A DNA stretch of 64,000 bases from a virus (Duplodnaviria; Caudoviricetes): IMG/VR virus record IMGVR_UViG_3300020079_000007, positions 96,001-160,000 of that record. The stretch is one strand, 5' to 3'. Positions within the stretch are counted from its first letter, which is position 1; each line of letters opens with the position of its first letter. Of the stretch, positions 1 to 2,795 are shown piece after piece. The notes beneath the pieces are model-generated. The model was given only the letters and a program-made list of their open reading frames with translations. It was not told the DNA's origin and did not search any database. The position numbers were made by a program, and so were the translations under genes.

Positions 1-1302
1 TGGGACGGTCTTAAGGGATATTTCATTCCTTGGAAATATGTTGATGTAAAATTGTTTGAAGAAAATGTTATGTCTTGTCAGCATCGCACAGGTGCCAACC
101 CTAAGTTCGATATTAAGTTCTTTTGGAAACACGGTGTATCAAGACGCGTAAATGTTACAGATGCAACAGATAGGCTTGCGCACTGTATTACATCTGAAGT
201 TAGGTCAGGTTTGAAGCCACTTGCGTATCGTTATTCACCTTTCGGCGGTTATGATATTAAGCTTGACAAATGGAAGAAACAAACAAAGTGTGATGACTAT
301 ACAAAAATTCCTAATGACATCCTTGCTCCTTACGCAACAATGGACGCTTTGGTTACTTGGAGAATTCAGTGTGAGTTGTGGACACTTGTTGATGAAATCG
401 ATAGAAACTTCCCTAACGAAAAATATCCTGAGTGGACAATTCGCCGTTGGTATGAAACACAGATGATGGAAATTTACAAAGAAATTTGTAATGTTGAATA
501 TCGCGGTATTTATGTTAACTGGGAATTGATGGAAAAGTACCGTTGTGAAATGGTTGAAGATTTGCGAAAGAAAGATGAAGAGCTTCGTAAAATATGGGGT
601 GTTGATAACAACTTCAACATTTCATCAACAACTGAAGTAGGTAAGTTGTTTGAAAAACTTGGATGGACTTGCTGCGGTCGTAATGAGGCAGGTGTTTATC
701 TTACAGGTGATGAAGCTATGGGTACTTGGTCAAGAGAGAAACGCCCAGGAGTTGATTTGCTTGCTGAATACCGAACTGAAAAAACTTCGCTTGGTTCTTT
801 CGTAGGACTCGATCCTGCTATGTGGCAAACACATAAAGATTGGCCTGAATGGTTGAAACCTAAAGAAACTACAGGTTGGCTTCAATACATTTATCACGAT
901 GAAAACGATGGTAATCCTGAAGAAGGTGGCTCATATCGAGTTCAGCAGTCTTATCTTGTAATGGGAACAGAAACTTATCGTTTCATCGGTAAAGATCCAA
1001 ACTTCCAAAACATCCCTACACGCAACAAGTATGCAGGATTTGTAAAGAAGTGTATTGATACTCCGCCTGCTGATTTGTACACAATCGTAGGCAGTGATGG
1101 CAAGGAATATAATCTTGCGGAGTTTGAGCTTGTTTACACAAATGAAGGCTATAAAACTGCAAAAGAATGTTTCTCAAAAATGAGAAGTTTGCAATTTATT
1201 GATAAAGACCCAGAACATCCTGCAGTTATAAGATGTGGATTTGATAAACAAGAAGACGGATCTTTCAAAAAGCCAGACCCAAAAATTTGGTTTGAAGCAT
1301 AA
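1..1302 (+). CDS. polA: Family A DNA polymerase, N-terminal fragment (3'-5' exonuclease + thumb); 5'-truncated by the window edge, ends before polymerase motif A
   Basis: Frame is open from base 1. ExoII-like NPKFDIKF, ExoIII-like YATMDA and ETYRFIGKDPNFQNIP (PolA TGRLSS..PNLQNIP) are present; no DYSQIELR motif before the stop. Confidence 0.85.
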   Translation, partial: WDGLKGYFIPWKYVDVKLFEENVMSCQHRTGANPKFDIKFFWKHGVSRRVNVTDATDRLAHCITSEVRSGLKPLAYRYSPFGGYDIKLDKWKKQTKCDDYTKIPNDILAPYATMDALVTWRIQCELWTLVDEIDRNFPNEKYPEWTIRRWYETQMMEIYKEICNVEYRGIYVNWELMEKYRCEMVEDLRKKDEELRKIWGVDNNFNISSTTEVGKLFEKLGWTCCGRNEAGVYLTGDEAMGTWSREKRPGVDLLAEYRTEKTSLGSFVGLDPAMWQTHKDWPEWLKPKETTGWLQYIYHDENDGNPEEGGSYRVQQSYLVMGTETYRFIGKDPNFQNIPTRNKYAGFVKKCIDTPPADLYTIVGSDGKEYNLAEFELVYTNEGYKTAKECFSKMRSLQFIDKDPEHPAVIRCGFDKQEDGSFKKPDPKIWFEA

Positions 1303-1437: not shown

Positions 1438-1470
1438 TAAAAAAGGAGCCTTTCGGCTCCTTTACTTTTT
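1438..1470. terminator. Bidirectional intrinsic terminator between convergent genes
   Basis: A-run, GGAGCC-tttc-GGCTCC, T-rich tail. Confidence 0.8.
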
Positions 1471-1484
1471 TAACTTACTTATTA

Positions 1485-2795
1485 TTAAATTACTTTGTAA
1501 GTTGCAATGATGCTCAGAAGAACCTCTGGGTCAAGGCCACTGCTGTAAGAACTGAACATTTCAAGGAATGGCCACTTTTCAGCGCTAATCTCGATTGTCT
1601 CTTCTGCAGCTGTGTTAATCTGGAAGCCTGCAACGCGAGCAATATATTCAATCTTACGAAGATTGTCTCTTGCAGTCCAAGAATTGTTGTACTTTTCTGC
1701 AGACTCAACAACTTTCATAAATTCTTTGATTCTTTCCATTTCATCAGGTGTTGCTGCAAGGTTGAGACGGCTTGCATTTGCATCCCAATACTTTGTAATC
1801 TTTTCACGAACAGGGCTTAAAGAAAGAATACCGATACGTCCTTCAATGTTTGTAATCTTGTTCTTTGAAGCAAGATTTTCGTAATACTTCAGACCCTGCT
1901 TTTTAGCAAACTCAATGAAAGTGTTCAACTTCTTGTAAGCTTCACCTTTCTGAAGGCGCTTCCAATCACCGTAGTTGATTTTCAAAGCCTTTCTTTTAGG
2001 GAAGACAACGTTCAGGTAATCTTCAATACCGTGAAGATACTTTGAAGGAGTAGTCTTGCAAACATTCAAATCAGCAGAGTAGTAATCACTACGATTGCGG
2101 GCGATGAAGATGATTGCATCTTTAAGGTTTGCATCAGCCAAGATTTCGTTTGCACTGTAAACTTTATCAGCATCATATTTTCCAATTCCGCCGAAAAGCT
2201 TTTCATCATCAACGCGGTCTGCAAGTCGGGCAACAGCTTTCTTTTCTGTTTTACCGTTTACATCAACTTCAACATAATCGTCGAAGTTGAAAACTCTTGG
2301 GCTTGCATATCCAACTTTCTTTACAAGATCTTCGATATTAGGACCCATAATTGTGATTGGGTAATCATCTGTAAGTTTGTTTTTTGCAAGGATGTCGTCA
2401 AGAACCATTGCAGAACCGTTAGGGAACCAACGGAAGTCAGCAGAGTCCATAAACTTGTCATACTTTTTCTGAGAAATGTTTACAAAGATTATTGACTTTT
2501 CTTTGTTTTCAGAGAAGAAGTATCCGATCTTCTGTTCGATTGTGTTGAATTTTGCAATGTAAGAAGGTCCTGCATACTTGTGAACCTGACGATTGTTGTT
2601 GTTTCTGTAAGTTGATACTTCGATAAAAGGAAGACTGAAAATACCATCAATTTTCTTTTCAATCTTTGACTGCTTTTCAGCCTGAATTTTGACGATGTCA
2701 GAAATATCATCTTCAAGCAAGTCCTGATACTTTTCAACGATTTTTGTAAGCTTTCCGATACGCTTGCAAGTGTTGTAAGACTGTTTGATATTCAT
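1485..2795 (-). CDS. Hypothetical protein, possibly the C-terminal half of a split rIIA
   Basis: 436-aa ORF with strong SD (AAGGAG) and its own early-type promoter, directly downstream of a short rIIA-like gene. Confidence 0.5.
   Translation of the reverse strand: MNIKQSYNTCKRIGKLTKIVEKYQDLLEDDISDIVKIQAEKQSKIEKKIDGIFSLPFIEVSTYRNNNNRQVHKYAGPSYIAKFNTIEQKIGYFFSENKEKSIIFVNISQKKYDKFMDSADFRWFPNGSAMVLDDILAKNKLTDDYPITIMGPNIEDLVKKVGYASPRVFNFDDYVEVDVNGKTEKKAVARLADRVDDEKLFGGIGKYDADKVYSANEILADANLKDAIIFIARNRSDYYSADLNVCKTTPSKYLHGIEDYLNVVFPKRKALKINYGDWKRLQKGEAYKKLNTFIEFAKKQGLKYYENLASKNKITNIEGRIGILSLSPVREKITKYWDANASRLNLAATPDEMERIKEFMKVVESAEKYNNSWTARDNLRKIEYIARVAGFQINTAAEETIEISAEKWPFLEMFSSYSSGLDPEVLLSIIATYKVI

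Follow-up and report, generated by a model that had tools for sequence, protein, structure and literature searches.

Replicative polymerases that are broken inside a conserved catalytic region are found among natural split inteins and fractured genes; an N-intein-like segment closes the upstream piece, and a short segment complementary to it opens the downstream one (PMC11923092; Dassa et al. 2009, PMC2677866). One such system is the Aes123 PolB1 split intein (9HTH), which is cysteine-less and comes from T4-like Aeromonas phages (PMC11923092). In the fractured genes, a free-standing homing endonuclease gene separates the two otherwise neighboring halves. Essential polymerases are also known as non-covalent chains from separate genes without an intein: T4-like Aeh1 gp43A/B is a split polymerase of this kind (cited in Dassa et al. 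2009, PMC2677866), and the Pol III alpha of jumbo phages is split as well (PMC7824862). Here, we analyzed the first gene in a 64,000-nucleotide stretch of viral DNA (hereafter the window; G000:C1:96001-160000), which is part of a 188,745-bp IMG/VR virus record (IMGVR_UViG_3300020079_000007) with an estimated completeness of 65%. The source is a large uncultured jumbo phage, in which a family A DNA polymerase is encoded by three separate genes, referred to below as pieces 1, 2 and 3 in the order of the unsplit enzyme. Pieces 1 and 2 end in small tails (tails 1 and 2), and pieces 2 and 3 begin with short heads (heads 1 and 2). We propose, with a probability of about 0.65, that the tails of this three-gene polymerase are splicing-dead half-intein remnants, which clamp the breaks non-covalently together with the heads.

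The arrangement resembles the natural split inteins in the break inside a conserved catalytic region, in the N-intein-like end of the upstream piece and in the short segment at the start of the downstream piece. Tail 2 is detectably homologous to natural N-inteins, with the same end point, and the model of tail 1 matches the same part of the fold. On the other hand, the phage tails and heads lack Ser/Cys1, TxxH, His-Asn and the +1 nucleophile, so that splicing is not possible, and the remainder amounts to roughly half of the N-intein and no more than one C-intein strand. The host protein here belongs to family A, and not to family B or DnaE. Whereas the halves of fractured genes are adjacent, the partner here lies 57 kb off, on the other strand and out of order, and the genes between pieces 3 and 1 encode no Pfam endonuclease domain. 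As compared to Aeh1 gp43A/B and jumbo phage Pol III alpha, which are described without intein-derived modules at the break, the present polymerase has a conserved, putative half-Hint tail and a head at both breaks. In the open-access papers covered, we came across no account in which splicing-dead remnants of split inteins act as docking modules.

The best database relatives of piece 1, with 22-28% identity, are the family A polymerases of T5-like phages (Demerecviridae) and an unsplit metagenomic enzyme, L020. These share the order of N-terminal domain, exonuclease and polymerase, as well as a motif C that reads HDS, but they are single chains without an insert before motif A or the O helix. 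In the T5-like Proteus phage PM135 (L014, MG030347.1:33166-39341), the polymerase is annotated as two coding sequences, broken inside motif B (..AAKAISFG / LYGSG..). The interrupter is a 261-residue open reading frame (ORF; P0003), which is LAGLIDADG-like by eye and annotated as hypothetical, and its site differs from the breaks described here.

The polymerase is divided among three genes

The whole piece 1 gene occupies G000:C1:95242-97302 and encodes 686 residues. Its 3' two thirds lie at window positions 1..1302 on the plus strand, where the frame runs off the window start and comprises the last 433 codons. The protein is composed of an N-terminal domain, a 3'-5' exonuclease, the thumb with the first palm segment, and the tail. 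In Pfam searches with the whole 686 residues, DNA_pol_A_exo1 (PF01612) was assigned to residues 211-383 (E=3e-9); the ExoI D-x-E is present, and D234 and E236 are invariant among 26 sequences. DNA_pol_A (PF00476) was assigned to residues 429-610, and the match covers profile positions 3-150 of 381, ending just before motif A. An ESM Atlas feature search with the piece 1 protein likewise led to DNA_pol_A clusters.

The last canonical polymerase segment, PNFQNIP..VKKCIDTPPAD, was located by family alignment at 997..1074 on the plus strand and would be the equivalent of the end of an N-extein. It matches PNFQNIP..FKCPDDY of the unsplit L020 and NLQNIP..FIAPED of Klenow, and PNFQN.P is invariant among the 26 members of the piece 1 family. 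On these alignments, the break in the window is immediately before motif A, in agreement with the first-pass annotation of this DNA. After CIDTPPAD (end 1074), piece 1 leaves the polymerase fold and continues with L-YTIVGSDGKEYNLAEFELVYTNEGYKTAKEC, followed by 43 codons to the stop codon at 1300..1302 (plus strand), just as that annotation had described the sequence.

Motifs B and C were identified by Pfam in piece 3, a protein of 350 residues encoded at G000:C1:93365-94417, just upstream of piece 1 and outside the window. Motif B reads RTVAKTENFGLLFG and motif C reads NNIHDSLDF, and PF00476 matches with E=8e-10 over profile positions 237-355. Since piece 3 lies upstream of piece 1, the C-terminal fragment precedes the N-terminal one, and an ORF of 80 codons and another of 201 codons are situated between them.

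Motif A is found in piece 2, a protein of 141 residues that extends from motif A through the D.H..T helix (..GYFLLTCDFASLQARLASID..DLHSMTGFGTFV..) and is encoded on the minus strand at G000:C1:38958-39383, 57 kb from piece 1. The piece 2 sequence alone gave no matches in Pfam or the PDB; an exhaustive HMMER search yielded 36 relatives, and one piece 2 homologue matches PF00476 positions 151-243. Motif A of piece 2 reads D22-F-A-S-L-Q-A-R, and D22 is nearly invariant among 19 homologues, in which S-L-(Q/E)-x-R and D.H..T are also kept. With motif A in such a tiny, unannotated and distant gene, polymerases of this type look truncated or dead in annotation. The position of Klenow Glu710, the sugar-selecting residue, is occupied by Gln or Glu in the piece 2 homologues, and by Gln in piece 2 itself (L016:2958-3383, minus strand) and in the unsplit L020 (L020:5521-8082). 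This Gln in motif A could mean an altered nucleotide selectivity.

Pieces 1, 2 and 3 align to the unsplit 853-residue L020 in order and without overlap, with boundaries near residues 567, 569-616 and 617. Piece 1 matches with 28% identity (E=2e-40) up to ..CPDDY, piece 2 covers YYICEADQSGFQLR..DMHSIT, and piece 3 starts from ISLEDFISKKGE.. (E=7e-26). This ordered, non-overlapping match indicates that the enzyme sits in three genes. The first-pass annotation had instead envisaged a two-subunit polymerase, with motifs A, B and C together in a single gene elsewhere in the genome; no such gene was found, as motif A stands apart from motifs B and C. No family B or Pol III alpha polymerase was found in the 188,745-bp record, which is ~65% complete.

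Other placements of motif A were rejected. The candidate at the N-terminus of piece 3 (MLTIDKSTELTV) has a non-conserved Asp, and its LTVHDF is matched by ISLEDF in L020. The 80-residue and 201-residue genes between the fragments gave no Pfam matches, and the former is absent in relatives.

The tail of piece 1 itself contains the sequence YTIVGSD, which was aligned to Klenow YVIVSAD (the motif A strand with the catalytic Asp) by phmmer against PDB sequences, and to YYICEAD of the unsplit L020 by BLAST. If YTIVGSD were a degenerate motif A, the polymerase would consist of two pieces, with the split after motif A and before motif B, which we regard as extremely improbable. The family reads GSD, GDS, GKS, GKD, GKN, SDS or SES at this site (34 homologous clusters), and the D619 column holds 17 Ser, 6 Asp and 3 Asn in the 26-sequence alignment, the Asp being replaced by Ser, Asn or Lys in most family members. 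No acidic residue of tail 1 is invariant across the family. Furthermore, a separate gene carries the conserved D-F-S-S-L-Q/E-x-R and is fused in place in some relatives, and YTIV forms the first strand of the tail module in the AlphaFold2 model. As the decoy Asp is not conserved, YTIVGSD corresponds to a hairpin turn and not to a catalytic Asp, and its assignment as motif A was rejected on the family alignment.

Tail 1 resembles half of an N-intein

Tail 1 comprises 75 residues, encoded at 1075..1299 on the plus strand, and is best read as a splicing-dead, putative half-Hint module on the basis of AlphaFold2, Foldseek, the ratio of nonsynonymous to synonymous substitution rates (dN/dS) and sequence identity. 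Within it, a 31-mer starting YTIVGSDGKEY (1078..1170, plus strand) fits the intein block B pattern, as delineated by the secondary structure of the model and by column counts. The AlphaFold2 model, calculated for window 994-1299 with 28 homologues, had a predicted local distance difference test (pLDDT) score of 79 overall and above 90 over residues 31-80. In this model, the tail consists of the strands YTIV, EYNL, LVYT and GYKT and one helix, followed by further short strands.

In a Foldseek search of the PDB with the tail 1 model, the top rows were inteins of at least seven families, with the Npu DnaE N-fragment first (probability 0.82), and none of the matches reached E<=0.001. Inteins accounted for 17 of the 18 VIA hits, and most of the top Foldseek rows were inteins, not SH3 or OB folds. 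Model residues 26-76 align with the middle and end of N-inteins (MchDnaB-1 46-108; Pho PolII 73-129; root mean square deviation 3.1). The model thus supports a reading of tail 1 as the half of an N-intein that contains block B, extended by ~35 residues, and the Hint likeness first noticed in the 31-mer is recovered by structure searches with the predicted tail.

Tail 2 and the heads

Piece 2 ends in its own tail 2 (..IRVHDDVDNKDYVFADSSKVRVERAG..VVKACELQPTDHILE). The best PDB sequence match of the piece 2 family profile was 9hth_A (E=0.0042), in which tail 2 aligns to ..GGKEVIVTADHSVMVKRDGK... We compared the tail 2 family with natural N-inteins from six phage PolB genes (Aes123, CP21, VPALA, PTm1, Lak-C1 and PA5oct), and hhalign gave a probability of 94% and P=1.4e-7 over 56 columns. 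The aligned columns are the last 56 of the N-intein, and tail 2 and the N-intein end together. Tails 1 and 2 align with each other in the same register (P=0.0014, hhalign), and a tail 1 hidden Markov model (HMM) weakly picks the tail 2 regions in several fused relatives. Nothing in tail 2 corresponds to the last 35 residues of tail 1, which include the conserved P678 and the WF end.

The heads of pieces 2 and 3 share an M-x-K-I-x-K start. The head of piece 2 consists of 16 residues and runs into the motif A strand (..QRG-YFLLTCD), and that of piece 3 consists of ~9 residues and runs into LTVHDF. The mean net charge is -4.6 for tail 1 and -4.3 for tail 2 (-4.5 for the tails overall), and the heads are neutral to slightly basic.

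Residues required for splicing are absent

Intein block A is not present, in line with the first-pass annotation: tail 1 begins with L-Y-(T/I)-I straight after the polymerase sequence, without Cys/Ser/Thr1, and the model aligns only from about intein residue 46 onward. In the block B-like segment, A626 and E629 stand where inteins have T..H, and the replacement of TxxH by A626-E-F-E629 is conserved, with Ala in 23 and Glu in 24 of the 26 family members. Tail 2 likewise lacks T..H where the PolB inteins have T-x-D-H. Blocks F and G were not encountered, as the heads have neither His-Asn nor a +1 nucleophile. The class 3 features (a conserved block F Cys and the W-C-T triplet) are also missing, and the cysteines of the tail are not conserved. 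Since no splicing residue survives, the chains stay separate.

Conservation and gene architectures among relatives

Piece 1 with its tail was found in 34 clusters of 45-95% identity, all 660-710 residues long and all ending in the same tail. Piece 3 was found in 93 clusters, and free-standing piece 2 in ~25. The dN/dS of tail 1 is 0.08-0.09, with dS >1, and by this measure the tail is under strong purifying selection. The mean pairwise identity is 55% in the first 40 residues of tail 1, as compared to 60% in the polymerase body. The three genes recur in a 259-kb relative (73-76% identity), in the same swapped order and with a similar separation.

This conservation bears on the idea that the fragments are decaying pseudogenes, or are joined by cryptic protein or RNA splicing. 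The record is only ~65% complete and another polymerase could exist, and in gut jumbo phages introns and inteins commonly fragment genes (PMC12880540). Nevertheless, we consider decay or cryptic splicing very unlikely, given the strong purifying selection on the tail, the retention of all three pieces in many lineages and the absence of every residue needed for protein splicing. RNA splicing in cis is impossible, as the pieces are encoded on opposite strands, 57 kb from each other and in swapped order. A pseudogene, which the first-pass annotation had named as an outcome that would overturn its proposal, was not borne out: the polymerase is genuinely split, and this gene is one of its conserved fragments.

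In several relatives, the pieces are fused. Pieces 1 and 2 are joined without an insert at the window joint in P0158, P0160 and P0161, and with an insert of 50-95 residues exactly at this joint in P0143, P0155 and P0156. In P0140, pieces 2 and 3 are fused with an insert at the second joint. In P0109, piece 3 is fused at its C-terminus to piece 2, in the swapped order, and the head of piece 2 is kept internally; P0108 and P0112 are probably fused in the same swapped order. At ~490-500 residues, P0109, P0108 and P0112 have the appearance of a circularly permuted single chain with both heads and tail 2. Heads were found only at a break or an insert, and the insert-free fused relatives have neither tail nor head. 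As the one-chain inserts imply, a single inserted domain can comprise both a tail and a head. The structure neighbours of the ESM Atlas model of the P0155 one-chain insert are mostly intein and Hint proteins, with template modelling scores of 0.55-0.61.

Origin of the tails

Several observations weigh against an intein origin of the tails. Up to an E value of 10, Pfam scans of the tail, of piece 2 and of the one-chain forms yielded no Hint or intein family, and the last 85 residues of piece 1 matched no Pfam family at all. A shallow tail 1 profile of 5 sequences found nothing among PDB sequences, and the comparison of tail 1, as a 33-sequence alignment, with the natural N-inteins was not significant (P=0.27, hhalign). 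The tail 1 HMM also gave no significant match to the one-chain inserts of P0155, P0143 and P0156; it is by position, length and end motifs that these inserts are taken as putative homologues of tail 1, and AlphaFold2 modelling of the P0155 insert with its flanks reached a pLDDT of only 45. Lastly, the comparison of head 1 with C-inteins (IntC) gave P=0.5, the heads being very short (9-16 residues) for such a comparison. The complementary Hint-like fragment that the first-pass annotation proposed to look for on the partner is thus no more than the short N-terminal head, for which an IntC origin is unsupported. No further tail-like module was found elsewhere in the genome, and a PF14890 search of this record and four related records revealed no bona fide intein.

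In view of the missing Pfam Hint match and the non-significant alignment of tail 1 with N-inteins, the tail might be an ordinary SH3-like small β-barrel insertion unrelated to inteins, with a Hint likeness that arose by convergence or through the prediction itself; the second PDB match of the piece 2 profile was a de novo SH3-like barrel (E=0.088). We consider such a barrel unlikely, because the structure hits of the tail 1 model are predominantly inteins of many families, and the match of tail 2 to natural split N-inteins remains in register to the end. In addition, one gene has two like inserts, both at conserved catalytic sites, and relatives either carry or lack them, which corresponds to the behaviour of inteins.

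A model for the assembly of the pieces

In the proposed mechanism, each acidic tail would bind the short, neutral-to-basic head of the next piece by strand addition, and tail and head would together complete a small Hint-like β module that clamps the break point. This would bring the end of ..TPPADL and the beginning of YFLLTCD together. The palm strand with the catalytic Asp would be placed as in the one-chain enzyme, and the palm and fingers would be restored without a peptide bond. The second break, before the O helix, would be bridged by the same tail-head arrangement, and the three pieces may thus form an active heterotrimer. As for its history, inteins may have invaded two catalytic sites, followed by splitting and then by the loss of splicing and shrinkage, which would have left the genes free to move.

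The chances are about even, in our estimate, that both breaks are bridged by dead half-intein pairs (tail 1/head 1 and tail 2/head 2) that were taken over as specific docking tags. As such tags would carry the assembly information, the pieces would be free to scatter, reorder, fuse and circularly permute, and all of these states are seen in the relatives.

The tail may instead be Hint-derived but reused for binding to DNA, the clamp or another replisome protein, while the pieces associate via ordinary polymerase interfaces. The pairing of tail and head is something that we infer, and the tail folds confidently alone in AlphaFold2, without the head; its last 35 residues, with P678 and the WF end, are unmatched in tail 2, and an unrelated 80-residue neighbour ends in a similar KQEDGSW..EA peptide. 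However, such a reuse seems improbable to us, considering that the heads occur only at broken or inserted chains, that the insert-free fused relatives lack both elements, and that the head is kept even internally in P0109. The same tail and head arrangement at both breaks and the coincidence of the tail 2 end with the natural N-intein end also favor tails that act as clamps at the breaks.

Inteins are viewed as selfish elements, for which the choice is between splicing out and being lost. In this polymerase, intein remnants appear to be kept under strong selection for a new job, namely holding together the chains of an essential enzyme. If true, this would explain how the polymerase survived the break in its active site and the scattering of its pieces, and would add a fate of inteins besides splicing and decay. 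Intein remnants would then constitute a natural, portable heterodimerisation system in phage replisomes and a source of small orthogonal protein clasps, and protein engineering would gain two docking pairs that are small, natural and non-covalent.

Neighboring genes and sequence elements

A terminator and a convergent gene follow piece 1, as had been noted from the sequence. A hairpin at 1442..1463, with a 9-bp GC-rich stem containing 5 GC pairs and T-runs on both strands, has the features of a bidirectional intrinsic terminator, and 3 terminator-like sites were observed versus 0.2 expected. The convergent ORF (1485..2795, minus strand) encodes 436 residues and has no assigned function; it bounds the polymerase locus without belonging to the polymerase. 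Homologous convergent genes are located at the matching place in the relatives L005 and L006.

The 201-residue gene upstream of piece 1 (L003:8637-9242; G000:C1:94637-95242) has no Pfam match; its product is rich in Lys and Glu over the N-terminal half and has a C-terminal domain that is conserved. The gene always lies between the motif B/C gene and the N-fragment gene, with a counterpart of 243 residues in L005 and L006. The gene is translationally coupled to the piece 1 gene, whose start overlaps the preceding stop, and its product may be a polymerase accessory protein.

The 80-residue ORF (L003:8410-8652; G000:C1:94410-94652) ends in ..YKKQEDGSWEAI, similar to the end of the piece 1 tail, ..FDKQEDGSF..WFEA (window 1243-1299). 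Only two Q[ED]DG.[FWY] sites exist in the genome, one in this ORF and the other at the end of tail 1. The ORF is absent from the 73% relatives, and could imitate the end of the tail or compete with it, or be a relic of chance or recombination.

The genes of pieces 3 and 2 are preceded by leader hairpins, AAGGC-AGTTCG-GCCTT (L003:7325-7364) and GGCAC-ATTTCG-GTGC (L016:3384-3425, minus strand), respectively, with different stems and similar loops. Both hairpins abut an identical AGGGAGA Shine-Dalgarno sequence, followed by 4 nucleotides and ATG. The matching leaders suggest a shared translational control of pieces 2 and 3, which are 55 kb apart.

Two paralogous ORFs are HNH-endonuclease-like by eye (L003:57-917, minus strand; L016:4352-5284, plus strand) and have in common the sequence ..YYE.HHILPKS.FPLWK.R.SN.VLLTAREH.FCHQLL.KIYP... 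The motif A gene has one of them at a distance of ~1.2 kb, and the other precedes the motif B/C gene by ~6.5 kb; both may reflect a mobile history of the breaks. Finally, the C-terminus of piece 3 (L003:8385-8417) reads ..KPARRIING; the relatives have ..ATRRVVNG or ..RRIVNG, and this end is kept in L005 and L006.

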